27,920 nt of DNA from the IMG/VR virus record IMGVR_UViG_3300045988_162894; one strand, 5' to 3'. Origin of the DNA: a virus. Lineage: Duplodnaviria; Heunggongvirae; Uroviricota; Caudoviricetes. Positions within the stretch are counted from its first letter, which is position 1. Each line of letters starts with the position of its first letter. Positions 171 to 27,920 of this stretch are shown in pieces. The translations under genes were made by a program, and so were the position numbers. A model generated the notes under the pieces. It saw only the letters and a list, made by a program, of their open reading frames with translations, did not search any database and was not told where the DNA came from.

Positions 171-1385
171 ATGACTAAGCAAAAAAAACCTAGGAAAGTT
201 CGGATAACAAAAGCTGAAAAAGAACGACGTGCAGAGTTTGATAAAAAGGAAATGAATATACGTGAGTATTTTTCAAATTTAAATAAACATGTGAACGATA
301 TTCGTAGTAAAGAGCGAGATTTTCATGGCCTTATCAGAGAACTGAATTACTTTCAAAAAAATATTGAATTTGAATACGAGAAAACGAGGGACATATCCCA
401 TCCAAGAGACTTAGGCAATGCTCGCGAAAATATACTAAAAGATTTTTTGAAATTAAGCGGTTTATTCCCAAGGCGTTATGCTGTGTCTTCAAGAAGCGTA
501 AGAGTTGCTGCTGCTACAGGACATCTTAGCAACGAGATTGACATCGCATTATATGATGCAGATGATGGATATGTGCTAATGCAGCGTAACGAAATATATG
601 ATGTTTACCCTTCTGAAAATGTATATGGAGTTATTCAAGTAAAATCAAAACTTACTAGGAAAGAATTAAGCAGTGCCATAAAAAATATTGCATCATATAA
701 AAAACTACAAAGAAAAAAGAATGGCCATGGATTTTTTATAAATAACACATCATTCTCAGGGTTCGGAGTTGTTTTTGCATATGAAACAGAAATGCACTGG
801 GATGATATAGTATCTGCTCTTAAGGAAGAAATCCAGAGTAATGAAACAAAATTACTACCCAATGCAGTTTTCATATTAAATAAAGGCTATTTTTTATTTG
901 GTAACAACAATGAATATCTGAGTTATAATTCAGATAGGATGATTAATGCAACTGACATGATTGTACATGGCTTTCCTGATCGTGATGGTTGTTCCTTAGT
1001 TAACTTCCACAAGTTAATGATTACATTGTTGAATAATACTCAAAAAGGGAATGTAAATATAAGTGATTATTATAGATTACCTTTAACTGCTGGAGATTAT
1101 TCTTACGAATTTAATTTTGGTATGTTTAATGAGTTAATTAACTGTGAAGTACACGGTCCATATCATCGTTTATTCAAAGAGAAAGCTTTAAAAACATTAG
1201 TAAATTATTGTGTTAGCAATGAACAGATTAATATGGTTAAGTTAATCGACTTGGCTTTAGGTAAAACTCCAAATAATGAGGAAGCATACCAAAGACAACC
1301 ATCGATGGTGACATTATATAACCCAGAAAATTTGCCACTACCTGAATTAATGTTTAGGGCGGTTCCGATGGTAAAGAATATATGA
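171..1385 (+). CDS. Hypothetical 404-aa protein in AT-rich cargo DNA; possible PD-(D/E)xK-like nuclease core (candidate defence/abortive-infection gene)
   Basis: Uninterrupted 1215-nt ORF in visibly AT-rich DNA where random stops are frequent. Possible extended -10 (TGATATGAT, 118-126) upstream. By eye the motifs E(NARENILKDF)...D(EIDIALYD)...QxK(GVIQVKSK) follow the helix-strand-strand spacing of PD-(D/E)xK nucleases. No tyrosine-recombinase motifs seen. Function is inference only. Confidence 0.6.
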   Translation: MTKQKKPRKVRITKAEKERRAEFDKKEMNIREYFSNLNKHVNDIRSKERDFHGLIRELNYFQKNIEFEYEKTRDISHPRDLGNARENILKDFLKLSGLFPRRYAVSSRSVRVAAATGHLSNEIDIALYDADDGYVLMQRNEIYDVYPSENVYGVIQVKSKLTRKELSSAIKNIASYKKLQRKKNGHGFFINNTSFSGFGVVFAYETEMHWDDIVSALKEEIQSNETKLLPNAVFILNKGYFLFGNNNEYLSYNSDRMINATDMIVHGFPDRDGCSLVNFHKLMITLLNNTQKGNVNISDYYRLPLTAGDYSYEFNFGMFNELINCEVHGPYHRLFKEKALKTLVNYCVSNEQINMVKLIDLALGKTPNNEEAYQRQPSMVTLYNPENLPLPELMFRAVPMVKNI

Positions 1386-20967: not shown

Positions 20968-22442
20968 TGGCAATTCTTGATGATGTGATTGGCGTTTTTT
21001 CACCAGGATGGAAAGCGGCAAGGCTGCGTTCCCGTGCGGTGATCCAGGCTTATGAGGCCGTAAAAACGACGCGGACACACAAAGCCCGACGGGAGAACCG
21101 AACTGCCGACCAGTTAAGCCAGTACGGGGCCGTGTCGTTACGTGAGCAGGCCCGTTACCTTGATAACAACCACGATCTGGTTATTGGTGTATTTGACAAG
21201 CTGGAAGAACGGGTGGTGGGGAAAAACGGGATTATTGTCGAGCCACATCCGGTATTACGCAATGGGGCCATTGCCCGTGATCTGGCAGCGGAGATACGTA
21301 CCCGATGGAGTGAATGGTCTGTCAGTCCGGAGGTCACCGGGCAGTTTACCCGTCCGATGCTGGAACGTCTGATGCTGCGTACCTGGCTGCGCGATGGTGA
21401 GGTGTTTGCCCAGATGGTTTCCGGGCGCATAAACAGCCTGACGCCTTCTGCCGGTGTTCATTTCTGGCTGGAGGCGCTCGAGCCGGACTTTATTCCCATG
21501 ACCAGTGATGAGAGCAACAGGCTGAATCAGGGCGTGTTTGTTGATGACTGGGGGCGTCCCGAAAAATATCTGGTGTATAAAAGTCGTCCTGTATCCGGAC
21601 GGCAGATGGAAACCAAAGAAGTGGATGCAGAGCGAATGCTGCATCTTAAATTTGTTCGCCGTCTGCACCAGATGCGCGGGACGTCTTTATTGTCCGGTGT
21701 GCTGATCCGCCTCAGCGCCCTGAAAGAGTATGAAGATTCTGAGCTGACTGCAGCAAGGGTCGCCGCTGCTCTGGGGATGTACATCCGCAAAGGCGACGGA
21801 CAGAGCTATGAAACGGATGGTAATTACAGCAAGGAGAATGAACGCGAGCTTACCATTCAGCCAGGCATTATTTACGACGATCTGAAACCCGGCGAAGAAA
21901 TCGGAATGGTGAAGTCGGATCGCCCAAATCCTAACCTTGAAACTTTTCGTAATGCTCAGTTGCGTGCCGTGGCGGCGGGCAGTCGTCTGAGTTTTTCCAG
22001 TACAGCGCGCAACTATAACGGCACTTACAGCGCCCAGCGTCAGGAGCTGGTTGAATCCACTGATGGCTACCTGATCCTGCAGGACTGGTTTATTGGTGCC
22101 GTCACCCGCCCGATGTATCGTGCCTGGCTGAAACAGGCTGTGGCATCCGGTGTTATCAGGCTACCCCGCGATCTTGACCGTTCTTCACTGTATACCGCGG
22201 TGTATTCCGGACCGGTGATGCCGTGGATTGATCCTGTTAAGGAGGCTGAGGCCTGGAAAATCCAGATTCGTGGTGGAGCGGCGACAGAATCAGACTGGGT
22301 ACGTGCAGGTGGTCGTAATCCGGATGATGTCAAACGTCGGCGCAAGGCCGAAATTGATGAAAACCGCAAGCTGGACCTGGTATTTGATACCGATCCGGCC
22401 AGTGATAAAGGAGGCAGCAGTGCCGCAACGAAACGACAGTAG
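20967..22442 (+). CDS. Portal protein (lambda gpB family)
   Basis: 491 aa, start overlapping the W stop (TGATG). Position and size. Confidence 0.8.
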   Translation: MAILDDVIGVFSPGWKAARLRSRAVIQAYEAVKTTRTHKARRENRTADQLSQYGAVSLREQARYLDNNHDLVIGVFDKLEERVVGKNGIIVEPHPVLRNGAIARDLAAEIRTRWSEWSVSPEVTGQFTRPMLERLMLRTWLRDGEVFAQMVSGRINSLTPSAGVHFWLEALEPDFIPMTSDESNRLNQGVFVDDWGRPEKYLVYKSRPVSGRQMETKEVDAERMLHLKFVRRLHQMRGTSLLSGVLIRLSALKEYEDSELTAARVAAALGMYIRKGDGQSYETDGNYSKENERELTIQPGIIYDDLKPGEEIGMVKSDRPNPNLETFRNAQLRAVAAGSRLSFSSTARNYNGTYSAQRQELVESTDGYLILQDWFIGAVTRPMYRAWLKQAVASGVIRLPRDLDRSSLYTAVYSGPVMPWIDPVKEAEAWKIQIRGGAATESDWVRAGGRNPDDVKRRRKAEIDENRKLDLVFDTDPASDKGGSSAATKRQ

Positions 22443-24447
22443 CCGCAGTACACCGACGACCAGTCCGAAGAATAATTCCTGGTTCAGGATGCAGGCTGGT
22501 CACCAGAGTGACGCGGATATTTATATTTATGACGAGATTGGTTTCTGGGGTGTTACAGCGAAGCAGTTTATCAGTGATCTGAATGCACTGGGCGATATCA
22601 CCCACATTAATCTCCATATCAATTCACCGGGTGGCGATGTCTTCGAAGGCATCGCCATTTTTAATGCGCTGAAAACACATGGTGCGTCCATTACCGTTTA
22701 TGTCGACGGTGTGGCGGCATCAATGGCGTCGGTCATTGCGATGGTGGGAAACCCGGTCATTATGCCGGAAAACACCTTCATGATGATTCATAAACCATTT
22801 GGCTTTACGGGCGGTGATGCGGAGGACATGCGCACCTATGCCGACCTGCTCGATAAAGTTGAGGCGGTTCTGTTACCCGCTTATGCACAGAAAACCGGGA
22901 AAACCACCGATGAAATTGCTGCCATGCTGGCGGATGAGACCTGGATGTCCGGTGCCGAATGTCTGGCACATGGATTTGCTGATCAGGTGACGCCAGCCGT
23001 TAAGGCAATGGCATGTATTCAGTCAAAACGTACAGAGGAATTTAAAAAGATGCCGGAATCCATTCGAAACATGATTACTCCGCCACGCAACAGTGCTCCA
23101 CGCGTACAGGATAATGAACCTGCAGCTTCCCGGACGCCAGTGCAGGCAGCAGCACCCGTGGTGGATGAAAACAGTATCCGTGCGCAGGTACTGGCAGAGC
23201 AAAAAGCGCGTGTAAACGGTATTAATGATCTGTTTGCCATGTTTGGCGGGCGTTATCAGACGCTGCAGGCTCAGTGTCTTGCCGATCCTGAATGTTCGCT
23301 GGAGCAGGCCCGCGAAAAGCTGTTGAACGAGATGGGGCGCGAGTCCACGCCATCCAATAAAAATACCCCGGCTCATATTTATGCCGGTAACGGTAATTTT
23401 GTGGGGGACGGGATCCGCCAGGCGCTGATGGCGCGTGCCGGATTTGAAAAAACCGAACGTGATAATGTCTACAACGGGATGACCCTGCGTGAATATGCCC
23501 GTATGTCACTGACTGAACGGGGTATTGGGGTTTCCAGTTATAACCCGATGCAGATGGTCGGTGCGGCGTTCACACACAGTACGTCTGACTTCGGTAATAT
23601 TCTGCTGGATGTTGCGAACAAAGCCATTCTGCAGGGCTGGGAAGATGCCCCTGAAACCTATGAACAGTGGACGCGGAAAGGTCAGTTGTCTGATTTTAAA
23701 ATTGCCCATCGTGTGGGTATGGGGGGCTTCAGTGCTCTGCGTCAGGTGCGTGAAGGGGCGGAATATAAATACGTCACCACCGGAGATAAACAGGCCACTA
23801 TTGCACTGGCGACCTATGGCGAGCTGTTCAGTATCACCCGTCAGGCCATTATCAATGATGATCTGAATATGCTGACCGATGTCCCGATGAAACTGGGCCG
23901 TGCGGCGAAATCCACTATTGCCGATCTGGTTTATGCCATTCTGACGTCTAACCCGAAAATCTCCACAGATAATGTAAGTCTGTTCGATAAAGCGAAACAT
24001 GCAAACGTACTGGAGAGCGCTGCAATGGACGTGGCATCGCTGGATAAAGCCCGCCAGTTGATGCGCGTTCAGAAAGAGGGGGAGCGTCATCTGAATATTC
24101 GTCCTGCGTTCGTACTGGTACCGACGGCGATGGAGTCTGTTGCTAACCAGGTCATTCGCTCCTCAAGTGTCAAGGGGGCTGACATTAACGCCGGTATTAT
24201 TAACCCGGTGAAAGATTTTGCGACCGTTATTGCAGAGCCTCGTCTTGATGATAACAGCCAGACCACCTTCTACCTGGCTGCGTCAAAAGGCTCCGATACG
24301 ATTGAAGTGGCTTATCTCAACGGTGTGGATACGCCATATATTGATCAGATGGAGGGCTTCAGTGTGGATGGCGTGACAACGAAAGTGCGTATTGACGCCG
24401 GTGTCGCGCCAGTTGATCACCGCGGTCTGGTGAAATGTACGGCGTAA
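22420..24447 (+). CDS. Fusion ORF: ClpP/S49-type prohead protease domain + linker + major capsid protein domain
   Basis: GTG 22420 with GGAGG RBS (alternative ATG 22489). N-terminal protease-like region (INSPGGDVFEGIAIFNALK...ASMASVIAM). The C-terminal 350 aa are capsid-like. One uninterrupted frame. Confidence 0.75.
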   Translation: MPQRNDSSRSTPTTSPKNNSWFRMQAGHQSDADIYIYDEIGFWGVTAKQFISDLNALGDITHINLHINSPGGDVFEGIAIFNALKTHGASITVYVDGVAASMASVIAMVGNPVIMPENTFMMIHKPFGFTGGDAEDMRTYADLLDKVEAVLLPAYAQKTGKTTDEIAAMLADETWMSGAECLAHGFADQVTPAVKAMACIQSKRTEEFKKMPESIRNMITPPRNSAPRVQDNEPAASRTPVQAAAPVVDENSIRAQVLAEQKARVNGINDLFAMFGGRYQTLQAQCLADPECSLEQAREKLLNEMGRESTPSNKNTPAHIYAGNGNFVGDGIRQALMARAGFEKTERDNVYNGMTLREYARMSLTERGIGVSSYNPMQMVGAAFTHSTSDFGNILLDVANKAILQGWEDAPETYEQWTRKGQLSDFKIAHRVGMGGFSALRQVREGAEYKYVTTGDKQATIALATYGELFSITRQAIINDDLNMLTDVPMKLGRAAKSTIADLVYAILTSNPKISTDNVSLFDKAKHANVLESAAMDVASLDKARQLMRVQKEGERHLNIRPAFVLVPTAMESVANQVIRSSSVKGADINAGIINPVKDFATVIAEPRLDDNSQTTFYLAASKGSDTIEVAYLNGVDTPYIDQMEGFSVDGVTTKVRIDAGVAPVDHRGLVKCTA

Positions 24448-26135: not shown

Positions 26136-26879
26136 ATGACCACACCAAATCCACTGGCAAAAACGAAAGGTGCGGGAACGACGTTCTGGATGTATACCGG
26201 CAAGGGCGATGCGTTTGCGAACCCTTTATCGGACACTGACTGGCTGCGTCTTGCGATGGTGAAGGATCTGCAACCTGGCGAAATGACCGCTGATGCAGAA
26301 GATGACACTTATCTCGATGATGAAGATGCAGACTGGAAAACGACAACCCAGGGGCAGAAATCAGTCGGTGATACTTCGGCGACGCTGGCCTGGCGTCCGG
26401 GGGACAGCGGGCAGAAAAAACTGGTTCAGTTGTTCGACTCCGGTGAAGTCTGCGCTTTTCGTATCAAATATCCCAACGGTACTGTTGATGTTTTCCGTGG
26501 CTGGCTGAGTTCACTGGGTAAAACCATTGCCTCAAAAGACGTGATGACCCGCACAGTGAAAATCAGCGGTGTGGGGCGTCCGTATCTGGCAGAGGAAGGC
26601 ACTGAAATCGTGGGCGTTACCGGGCTGACGGTGGCACCGGCATCTGCCAGTGTAAAAGTGGGAGCAACCACCACGCTGACCTTTACAGTAAAACCTGACG
26701 GAGCCAGTGACAAAGCGATCAGTGTGCATTCGACAGATCCACAGACTGCCACGGTGACCCTGAACGGGCTTGTGGCCACGGTGAAAGGCGTGAAGCAGGG
26801 CAGTGTCAGCATTGTGGGCATGACTTCTGACGGCGATTTTGTGGCAGTGGCTACGGTGGCTGTCAGCGCCGCAGGTTAA
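26136..26879 (+). CDS. V: Major tail protein gpV with C-terminal Ig-like (Big_2) domain
   Basis: KGAGTT.W.Y.G.GD..ANPLSD.DW.RLA.VKDL.PGE.TA...DD.YLDDEDADW...GQKS.GDTS.TLAW.PG matches recalled lambda V. AGGAGG RBS. Confidence 0.85.
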   Translation: MTTPNPLAKTKGAGTTFWMYTGKGDAFANPLSDTDWLRLAMVKDLQPGEMTADAEDDTYLDDEDADWKTTTQGQKSVGDTSATLAWRPGDSGQKKLVQLFDSGEVCAFRIKYPNGTVDVFRGWLSSLGKTIASKDVMTRTVKISGVGRPYLAEEGTEIVGVTGLTVAPASASVKVGATTTLTFTVKPDGASDKAISVHSTDPQTATVTLNGLVATVKGVKQGSVSIVGMTSDGDFVAVATVAVSAAG

Positions 26880-26900
26880 CAGGACGATACTCATCATTTG

Positions 26901-26924
26901 CCCCGGTTATCCGGGGCTTTTTTG
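26901..26924 (+). terminator. Hairpin plus T-run between V and G (candidate partial terminator/attenuator)
   Basis: CCCCGG-TTAT-CCGGGG followed by CTTTTTT. Confidence 0.5.
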
Positions 26925-26936
26925 CAGGTGGAGAAC

Positions 26937-27326
26937 ATGATGTTTCTGAAACAGGGCACGTTTAATTATGAAAAGCAGTCCGTGGTGCTCAGTGAGCTGT
27001 CCGGGCTGCAGAGAATTGAATATCTGGCGTTTGTTCAGCAGCGAACGGCAAAGTTTGATGCCGAAGAGGGAGAACTGCCGGAGGCTGAACGACAGATTGC
27101 TTTTCTACGGATGGGGATGGATATCAATGCCTGGCTGGTTTCCCGCTCACTGTGGAATGCGGAACAGTCTCAGGATGTTGAGACGCTTTGCGCATCCGTT
27201 ATTACAACATGGTCGTATGATGCCCTGGGAGCGGGGGCGGAGATGGTTCTGTCGCTGAGCGGTATGGGAGCCATTGAGAATGCCGGGGATTTGGAGCATG
27301 AGGTGCTGACGCCGGAAAAGTCCTGA
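26937..27326 (+). CDS. G: Tail assembly chaperone gpG
   Basis: MFLK...SELSGLQRIEYLAF resembles the lambda G N-terminus. -1-frame T ORF overlaps the 3' end. Confidence 0.75.
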   Translation: MMFLKQGTFNYEKQSVVLSELSGLQRIEYLAFVQQRTAKFDAEEGELPEAERQIAFLRMGMDINAWLVSRSLWNAEQSQDVETLCASVITTWSYDALGAGAEMVLSLSGMGAIENAGDLEHEVLTPEKS

Positions 27327-27664
27327 CGCGGGAAATGCAGTTTGTCATGCGGCTTGCCCGGGAGTTCAGGCGGGCAGACTGGCGGCGGATGCTGTCGGAA
27401 ATGTCGGCCACTGAGCTTGGTGAGTGGGGCGATTATTTCCGGATGCAGAGCTTCAGTGATGTGTGGATGGATGCGCAGTTTGCCTCGCTGAAGGCATTGA
27501 TCGTGAGAATGGTGTCCGGCAGCAGTGATGCTGCGGTGGCTGATTTCAGCCTTTTACCGGAAGAGAACGGGATACCGGAGCGAACGGACGAAGAACTGAT
27601 GCATCTTGGGGAAGGTATTTCCGGAGGTGTGCGTTATGGACCAGATAGCCAACCTGGTCATTGA
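27302..27664 (+). CDS. T: T region of tail assembly chaperone gpGT, reached by -1 programmed frameshift from G
   Basis: The -1 frame is open only from 27302 (stop at 27299-27301) and G stops at 27324-27326, which confines the shift site to 27302-27323. Only candidate heptamer is G GAA AAG (27314-27320). Confidence 0.55.
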   Translation, partial: GADAGKVLTREMQFVMRLAREFRRADWRRMLSEMSATELGEWGDYFRMQSFSDVWMDAQFASLKALIVRMVSGSSDAAVADFSLLPEENGIPERTDEELMHLGEGISGGVRYGPDSQPGH

Positions 27665-27854
27665 TTTGGGGATTGATGCGGCAGAGTTTAAAAATGAAAT
27701 TCCCCGTATCAAAAACCTTCTGAATGGTGCAGCCAGCGATGCAGAACGGTCTTCTGCCCGTATGCAGCGTTTTATGGAGCGTCAGACTCAGGCCGCCCGG
27801 CAGACAACGCAGGCGGCTTCTTCGGGCTGCACATCGCTACCTGCGGCGACTTAA
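27636..27854 (+). CDS. Tape measure protein, N-terminal part (partial at window end; frame continuity uncertain near 27815-27855)
   Basis: MDQIANLVIDLGIDAAEF resembles the lambda H N-terminus (DLVVDLSLDAARF). GGAGGTG RBS. The frame stops at 27854 while the -1 frame stays open to the window end. Confidence 0.5.
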   Translation: MDQIANLVIDLGIDAAEFKNEIPRIKNLLNGAASDAERSSARMQRFMERQTQAARQTTQAASSGCTSLPAAT

Positions 27855-27920
27855 ACGGCGAGAGTTTCATCACGCAGAGCGAAAACAGCTACAAGCGCCT
27901 CGTCGTGCGGGACAATCGGC

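Follow-up and report, generated by a model that had tools for sequence, protein, structure and literature searches.

How is T translated in this phage, when it opens in the −1 frame inside the end of gene G and the short overlap between the two holds no canonical slippery heptamer? The window, the whole stretch of 27,920 nucleotides that was analysed, was originally predicted to join G and T by a programmed −1 frameshift at the non-canonical site G GAA AAG. We find that the junction at 27302-27326 is an ordinary lambda-like G/GT tail-chaperone frameshift site of a very common E. coli phage. Below we describe the overlap, compare it with its relatives and weigh the ways in which T could be made.

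The G and T reading frames and their overlap

The G/T pair lies between the major tail tube gene (V) and the tape measure gene (H), which is the lambda order V-G-T-H (Table 1). The G product, starting at ATG 26937 or 26940, matches Pfam PF06894 (Phage_TAC_2, lambda gpG; 1.8e-39, 134.9 bits against a cut-off of 27) and PHROG 42 (1e-51). The T segment matches Pfam PF06223 (Phage_tail_T; 5.1e-15, 56.1 bits against a cut-off of 25.9) and PHROG 39 (8e-43). The tail tube gene is labelled major tail subunit in the phi458, Ayreon and mEp460 records, and H in phi458 carries TMP_2 and Tape_meas_lam_C domains. Pfam, PHROG and the V-G-T-H synteny bear out the G and T homologs and speak for the −1 frameshift that had been read from the letters alone. 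H had also been taken to be intact, which could not be confirmed. After about 27825 the window departs from phi458 into foreign sequence, and the H frame then stops at 27852-27854, leaving H truncated. The last 95 nt of the window matched nothing in searches of phages, E. coli genomes and plasmids. Between V and G, a terminator is annotated at the same place in Ayreon, mEp460 and N15.

Table 1. Coordinates of the genes and sequence elements around the G/T junction (positions in the window)
Feature	Position	Strand	Basis and remarks
Major tail tube gene, lambda V-like, C-terminal Ig-like domain	26136..26879	+	Pfam Phage_TTP_12 1.5e-66, Big_2 1.7e-11; upstream synteny marker
Terminator-like GC hairpin and T-run between V and G	26900..26926	+	Seven G-C pairs, 4-nt loop, TTTTTT; context only
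Gene G, tail assembly chaperone, zero frame, 129 aa	26937..27326	+	Translation, Pfam, PHROG; TGA stop 27324-27326
TGA in −1 frame, upstream limit of the shift window	27299..27301	+	Direct reading, translation
GAGGTG, perfect 6-nt complement of the 16S rRNA 3' end	27300..27305	+	8 nt before heptamer; candidate lineage-specific stimulator
Shift site G GAA AAG	27314..27320	+	Only slip-capable in-phase site in overlap; conserved; annotated in N15
T segment, −1 frame after slip	27320..27664	+	First new codon GTC 27320-22; TGA stop 27662-64
GGGAAAT, chance match rather than shift site	27330..27336	+	Past G stop; phase fits neither frame
ATG taken as stand-alone T start by RefSeq/PGAP and the mEp460 record	27335..27337	+	Probably not a genuine start
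Tape measure gene H, start	27636..27854	+	Strong Shine-Dalgarno pairing, −13.2 kcal/mol; 29-nt overlap with T end

At the junction, direct reading and translation give the G frame as ...GAG GTG CTG ACG CCG GAA AAG TCC TGA. The −1 frame is open from 27302 up to its stop at 27662-27664 and overlaps G by 22 nt. These are the limits that the original prediction had set for the shift (an open frame from 27302, the G stop at 27324-27326 and confinement to about 22 nt), and both the direct reading and the translation confirm them. The zero-frame codons within the overlap are GTG CTG ACG CCG GAA AAG TCC. Just one of the seven in-phase codon pairs keeps its pairing after a −1 step, namely AAG (27318-20) moving to AAA (27317-19), and no X XXY YYZ heptamer lies inside the 22-nt overlap. 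G GAA AAG is the sole candidate site because only this AAG to AAA step keeps pairing. The codon-pair check agrees with the earlier claim that G GAA AAG is the only heptamer available and is not of the lambda type.

In the zero frame the P site would hold GAA (27315-17) and the A site AAG (27318-20); moving back one base would place GGA (27314-16) and AAA (27317-19) there instead. With GGA at positions 1-3 and AAA at positions 4-6, the heptamer departs from the canonical X XXY YYZ pattern. It belongs with the Z_ZZN tetramers (A_AAG) described in PMC4066793, its P-site codon being near-cognate. Across the whole window GGAAAAG is found 12 times where 5.2 copies are expected, and the chance of an in-phase copy in a 22-nt overlap is about 2 in 1000. 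Taken alone, a copy here says little; the comparison with relatives is what counts.

Both sides of the heptamer were searched for stimulators. Upstream, the best anti-Shine-Dalgarno duplex, UGAGGUGC, has an energy of −9.3 kcal/mol and ends 7 nt before the heptamer. In relatives whose G proteins are 92-94% identical the element is reduced to GAGGCG, a weaker match, and N15 and mEp213 lack it. A family-wide upstream stimulator is therefore rejected, for all the strength of the element in the window. GAGGTG may act as a local, lineage-specific enhancer of the shift. Downstream, the fold of 27321-27400 has a minimum free energy no better than that of shuffled sequences (z = −0.25), folding seven diverse junctions as an alignment gave a positive covariation term and no covariation support, and an Rfam search of the junction at a permissive threshold returned no match. 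A downstream stimulatory RNA is rejected on these results, and the junction has no detectable downstream stem-loop or pseudoknot of the dnaX type. The only hairpin shared by some relatives begins about 30 nt downstream of the heptamer and is broken in the window.

The junction in close relatives and across the family

Over this region the window matches Escherichia phage phi458 at 100% identity, and Ayreon, cdtI, mEp460 and others at 97.6-99.4%. The phi458, Ayreon and mEp460 records annotate G and T as two separate genes. The 83 close relatives (80 IMG/VR loci and three phage records) show no variation at 27302-27360 and differ only upstream of 27305. The string ACG CCG GAA AAG TCC TGA is also found in seven more loci of species-representative genomes, whose G proteins are 92-99% identical. 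A 351-nt stretch across the junction (27150-27500) is present at 95% identity or above in 1836 of 5426 complete E. coli genomes, and the identical junction is carried by isolated phages, deposited complete, with named E. coli hosts. That 27302-27360 is the same in 83 of 83 relatives excludes a base error, and the 1836 E. coli genomes likewise rule out a sequencing error at the junction. The original prediction had allowed that resequencing might restore GGGAAAG; with 83 relatives sharing the junction, that objection falls.

Junctions from the wider family were taken from phage records through a GT fusion query, from a one-genome-per-species scan with G-protein alignment, and from three viral scans seeded by Xenorhabdus-, Providencia- and Gifsy-2-type G proteins. 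Starting at the heptamer, the alignment of 197 loci is free of gaps and yields 43 unique 42-nt contexts. The homologous position holds GGAAAAG in 32 of the 43, the lambda-type GGGAAAG in six, AAAAAAG (Stx phages) in two, GGCAAAA in two and GGGAAAA in one, proportions that are only indicative because the sample is skewed toward relatives of the window. Phages with GGAAAAG at this position are Gifsy-2, N15, HK225, mEp213 and Eeyore. It is also found in prophages of at least 12 genera, with hosts that include Enterobacter, Atlantibacter, Phytobacter, Pluralibacter, Pseudocitrobacter, Superficieibacter, Trabulsiella, Symbiopectobacterium, Xenorhabdus and Providencia.

In a neighbour-joining tree of fused GT, which is rough and midpoint-rooted, both deep branches carry GGAAAAG, and the GGGAAAG-type sites are spread over three or more separate clades. 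On this tree the lambda GGGAAAG looks derived, the opposite of what drift from a lambda site predicts. The site had been thought to have drifted, and a comparison with homologous G/GT junctions had been suggested as a check. That comparison runs contrary to drift: GGAAAAG is the commonest heptamer of the family, is kept at synonymous positions and is annotated as a slippery sequence in N15.

A second suggestion, that the G stop had changed position, holds in part. The stop follows the heptamer by 3 nt in the window and by 15 nt in lambda and N15; for prophages of the Providencia type the distance is 0 nt. Its position also changes within clades. The stop did move, then, and this movement is recurrent and apparently harmless. 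The early stop of the window arises because a T-frame Leu is encoded there by CTG, against CTC in Atlantibacter and HK225. In the Providencia type the overlap is only 13 nt, A TCA CTG GAA AAG and then TAG. Because the overlap shrinks this far, the homologous shift site is pinned to the heptamer.

The nucleotides of the heptamer are themselves conserved. Positions 4-6 are invariant across the compared junctions, and positions 1-2 are GG, or AA in the AAAAAAG phages, in 43 of 43 contexts. The codon before GAA in the 32 GGAAAAG contexts is CCG, GCG, CTG, TTG, ACG or GTG. These six codons encode five amino acids and all end in G, against a 41% background of G in third position for such codons in the remainder of these genes. 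Lys in the zero frame is encoded by AAG in 40 of 43 contexts, compared with 38% AAG elsewhere in G and T. The T frame becomes conserved at the amino-acid level precisely from the slip-site Lys, ahead of any ATG, with K6, E11, F14 and L18-E21 invariant. Judged from these alignments, the heptamer is conserved at synonymous positions too, as a widespread variant rather than a degenerate lambda site.

Proposed mechanism and alternatives

We propose, with a probability of about 0.8, that a programmed −1 frameshift makes the tail chaperone fusion gpGT in this lambda-like siphophage of the phi458/cdtI/mEp460 group. Most ribosomes would read G to the TGA at 27324, giving the 129-aa gpG. A small fraction would slip back one base on the heptamer. 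The Lys-tRNA in the A site would move from AAG to the fully cognate AAA, and the peptidyl-tRNA-Glu in the P site from GAA to GGA. tRNA-Glu has the anticodon UUC, so its pairing on GGA would be G:C, a G-U pair in the middle, and A:U. Reading would resume at GTC 27320 and end at TGA 27662, producing a gpGT of 128 + 114 = 242 aa with the predicted junction ...LTPEK-VLTREMQF... (LTPEK, then VLTREMQFVMRLAREF). By analogy with lambda, the G part would bind the tape measure protein and the T part would recruit the tail tube protein (PMC5009743).

The sequence shows the layout, homology and synteny of the pair, a single usable site in the overlap and its conservation, also at synonymous positions; slippage itself, its rate and the choice between a one- and a two-tRNA shift we infer. 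The rate is probably no higher than the few percent of lambda: in vitro the heptamer by itself slips poorly, and the searches on both sides turned up no conserved stimulator. When G GAA AAG served in a reconstituted E. coli system as the control in which only one tRNA can slip, translation stayed mainly in the zero frame (PMC6924986). A_AAG is the most shift-prone tetramer in E. coli, reaching 5.6% with a strong pseudoknot and staying near background, about 0.15%, without a stimulator (PMC4066793). The lambda G:GT ratio is roughly 30:1, and function needs both parts in one chain (PMC5009743). In the papers covered by a full-text search, this heptamer came up in connection with frameshifting only as the control mRNA of Peng 2019, and neither a phage paper nor an experiment on it in a phage setting came up; a match in the Podospora literature is a primer, and a dnaX variant study holds no G GAA AAG data. 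PRFect counts "twofour"-type motifs among non-canonical chaperone sites.

The same protein would result if tRNA-Lys alone slipped on A AAG (27317-27320), whether it occupied the A site or sat in the P site while the A site was empty. A_AAG by itself supports a −1 shift in E. coli when stimulated (PMC4066793), and the Ewingella-type junction, G GCA AAA, cannot re-pair the P-site tRNA at all. We nonetheless consider a slip of this kind doubtful. A pure tetramer model leaves unexplained that positions 1-2 are kept as GG or AA in every context, and that position 1 stays G though it is the synonymous third base of six codons. This conserved G favours a two-tRNA slip without proving it. The general bias toward G-ending codons in these genes weakens the position-1 argument without removing it. 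A slip by RNA polymerase on the A run, inserting or dropping a base in part of the transcripts so that they yield the −1 product, is scarcely credible. The site does hold the homopolymer AAAA, but the run is only four A here and only three in lambda-type relatives, and productive bacterial transcriptional slippage needs runs of about 7-9 or more identical bases.

T might instead be a separate 109-aa protein, made from ATG 27335 by termination-reinitiation, with the fusion unneeded in the phi458-type group. This ATG is the T start chosen by PGAP and in the mEp460 record, at least 1000 database contigs list the 109-aa protein, and the early G stop leaves the in-frame ATG only 9 nt downstream. 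Some reinitiation may occur at so short a distance, but nothing calls for it. Independent translation from ATG 27335 was also what the original prediction named as able to overturn it. We judge it improbable, as the Shine-Dalgarno energies and the unconserved ATGs both argue against it. Anti-Shine-Dalgarno pairing before ATG 27335 is at best −4.3 kcal/mol at zero spacing and is no better before later ATGs, whereas the neighbouring genes have −14.0 (V), −13.2 (H) and −7.2 (G) kcal/mol. The codon at 27335 is CTT in Gifsy-2, which shares the early stop, and CTG in N15 and lambda; the next T-frame ATG (27347) is CTG in lambda. Three near-identical records choose three different T starts. T is thus a −1 frame that overlaps the end of G and has neither a ribosome-binding site of its own nor a conserved start. 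The conservation of the T frame upstream of the ATG as far as the slip-site Lys, the heptamer kept at synonymous sites and the need of lambda for G and T in one chain (PMC5009743) also speak for the fusion.

The heptamer could also be a decayed lambda-type G GGA AAG, with GT poorly made or absent and the locus on its way to a defective prophage remnant. GGAAAAG is one transition away from GGGAAAG, is less slippery in vitro (PMC6924986) and has a GGGAAAT nearby. This account is highly improbable and, on the sequences compared, already largely refuted by the relatives: the junction is invariant among them, including isolated phages deposited complete, and the majority heptamer occupies both deep branches while GGGAAAG is scattered over separate clades. 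The original prediction rightly noted the GGGAAAT after the G stop. Its reading as a relic slip site does not hold up, for the motif lies beyond the stop and out of phase (CGC GGG AAA TGC in the G frame and CGG GAA ATG in the T frame, neither of them X XXY YYZ), and it is unconserved, Gifsy-2 having AATAATG in its place. We regard it as a chance match because the window holds 11 copies of GGGAAAK against 9.3 expected.

Within the programmed frameshift, a further and doubtful reading is that G GAA AAG, the poorly slippery control of kinetic work, is the predominant, possibly ancestral G/GT site of enterobacterial lambda-like phages. In that case either P-site re-pairing through the G-U middle pair would suffice in vivo to fix the chaperone ratio, or an unrecognised stimulator would act. 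Candidates for such a stimulator are the nascent peptide, the nearby stop codon and the conserved T-coding RNA.

Annotation and comparison with known systems

The G/GT frameshift here is already known biology, with GGAAAAG annotated in N15 for over two decades. Its biological importance is small, G/GT frameshifting being a textbook case. The annotation is where the gap lies. In RefSeq and most phage records T stands as an independent protein of 109 aa, and the exact fused 242-aa product is absent from a collection of 15 billion proteins, so the fusion is unannotated for the phi458-type group. What is probably a real gene product is therefore systematically missing from databases, and about one third of complete E. 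coli genomes carry the junction. The family also forms a natural heptamer series (GGAAAAG, GGGAAAG, AAAAAAG, GGGAAAA and GGCAAAA) at a fixed position, with the stop 0, 3 or 15 nt downstream. This series could calibrate frameshift predictors that are restricted to X XXY YYZ.

The lambda −1 frameshift at G/GT was reportedly described by Levin, Hendrix and Casjens in 1993 and by Xu, Hendrix and Duda in 2004, 2013 and 2014. Lambda has the same Pfam families (Phage_TAC_2 and Phage_tail_T) in the same gene order, and its T is likewise in the −1 frame without a start of its own. The junctions align without gaps, with the lambda GCG GGA AAG opposite CCG GAA AAG of the window, a homologous codon pair. 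[quoted passage not shown] The lambda stop is also the later of the two, T contributes 144 residues after the slip rather than 114, and protein identity is about 36%. The lambda chaperone frameshift is reviewed in PMC5009743.

Among the other carriers of this heptamer, N15 and Gifsy-2 are the closest known systems. N15 gene 14/gene 15 (AF064539) has an identical GGAAAAG at the homologous position, and its record labels this the "slippery sequence for -1 translational frameshift" and gene 15 the "downstream half of translational frameshift product". N15 differs from the window in its protein identity of about 36%, a preceding codon of GCG rather than CCG, a G stop at the lambda distance, and the lack of a Shine-Dalgarno-like element upstream. 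The Gifsy-2 prophage (STM1039/STM1041.1n; NC_010393) is the closest relative outside the phi458 group, with 54% identity, and shares both the ACG CCG GAA AAG TCC TGA junction and the early stop. Its record describes T as "part of G+G' frameshift hybrid protein". Unlike the window, Gifsy-2 has no T-frame ATG near the junction, and it has GAGGAC upstream where the window has GAGGTG.

Outside the tail chaperones, the dnaX site A AAA AAG and the A_AAG sites of the IS3 family share with the window the shift-prone tRNA-Lys step from AAG to AAA. The genes are unrelated. In dnaX a Shine-Dalgarno-like element lies about 10 nt before the site, and GAGGTG of the window stands at a comparable distance. 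dnaX and the IS elements shift at high rates with a strong downstream hairpin or pseudoknot, a structure that was not detectable at this junction.

Proposed shift sites at related G/T junctions

The proposed -1 shift site of the window, G GAA AAG, has several variants among homologous G/T loci. One variant is found in IMG/VR loci L189-L197 (see table). At the homologous site of these loci, re-pairing is impossible for the P-site tRNA. A second G GAA AAG is located 9 nt upstream of it, in phase and within the 28-nt stretch where the G frame and the open -1 frame coincide. The shift site in these loci may therefore be displaced by three codons.

Providencia-type and related loci (L109, L112, L150-L165, L172-L173) have G GAA AAG, followed immediately by TAG on its 3' side. 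The overlap shrinks to 13 nt in the shortest of them. A stop codon entering the A site directly after the slip site might itself favour slippage in this group. Loci L127-L139 were recovered from genome contigs and carry the exact lambda G/T sequence. These contigs are of low coverage and belong to unrelated organisms, Kitasatospora, Shewanella, Paenibacillus and Leeuwenhoekiella among others. Those assemblies appear to be contaminated with lambda DNA.

Database records of T and agreement with phi458

The frameshift is modelled in none of four records, OP434518 (phi458), MF807953, NC_019716 and NZ_CP029180. Across these near-identical genomes, the T coding sequence (window 27335-27664) is given three different ATG starts. 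A collection of 15 billion proteins holds no entry for the exact fused GT protein; the 109-aa T is found there on at least 1000 contigs.

Numbering in the window runs at +11 relative to OP434518.1, such that window 27314 is record 27303. Therefore, the window is not simply this record from base 1. Identity with phi458 runs to about 27825, and the final 95 nt (27826-27920) differ. Searched against collections of phages, complete E. coli genomes and plasmids, this tail gave no match. Its +2 frame is open and reads LHIATCGDLNGESFITQSENSYKRLVVRDNR. Because of the divergent tail, the tape measure frame from 27636 halts at a stop at 27852-27854. The tail may stem from chimeric assembly at the contig end or from a rearrangement.

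Features upstream of the G/T junction

Features of the window and of related loci
Feature	Coordinates	Context	Details
Long ORF	22228-24447	"putative protease" in phi458 annotation	739 aa as listed
Terminator-like hairpin and T-run	26900-26926	Between tail tube gene and G	Strong, 7 G-C pairs
Junction in L189-L197 (IMG/VR)	Near locus position 960-995		Homologous site G GCA AAA TAG

Judged by its sequence, the long ORF seems to join a protease region of ClpP-like type with a C-terminal part that is capsid-like, a reading taken from just the ORF list and the phi458 annotation. Downstream, the hairpin preceding G probably reduces expression of G, T and the tape measure gene H relative to the tube protein. 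A terminator is annotated at the equivalent spot in the records of Ayreon, mEp460 and N15.
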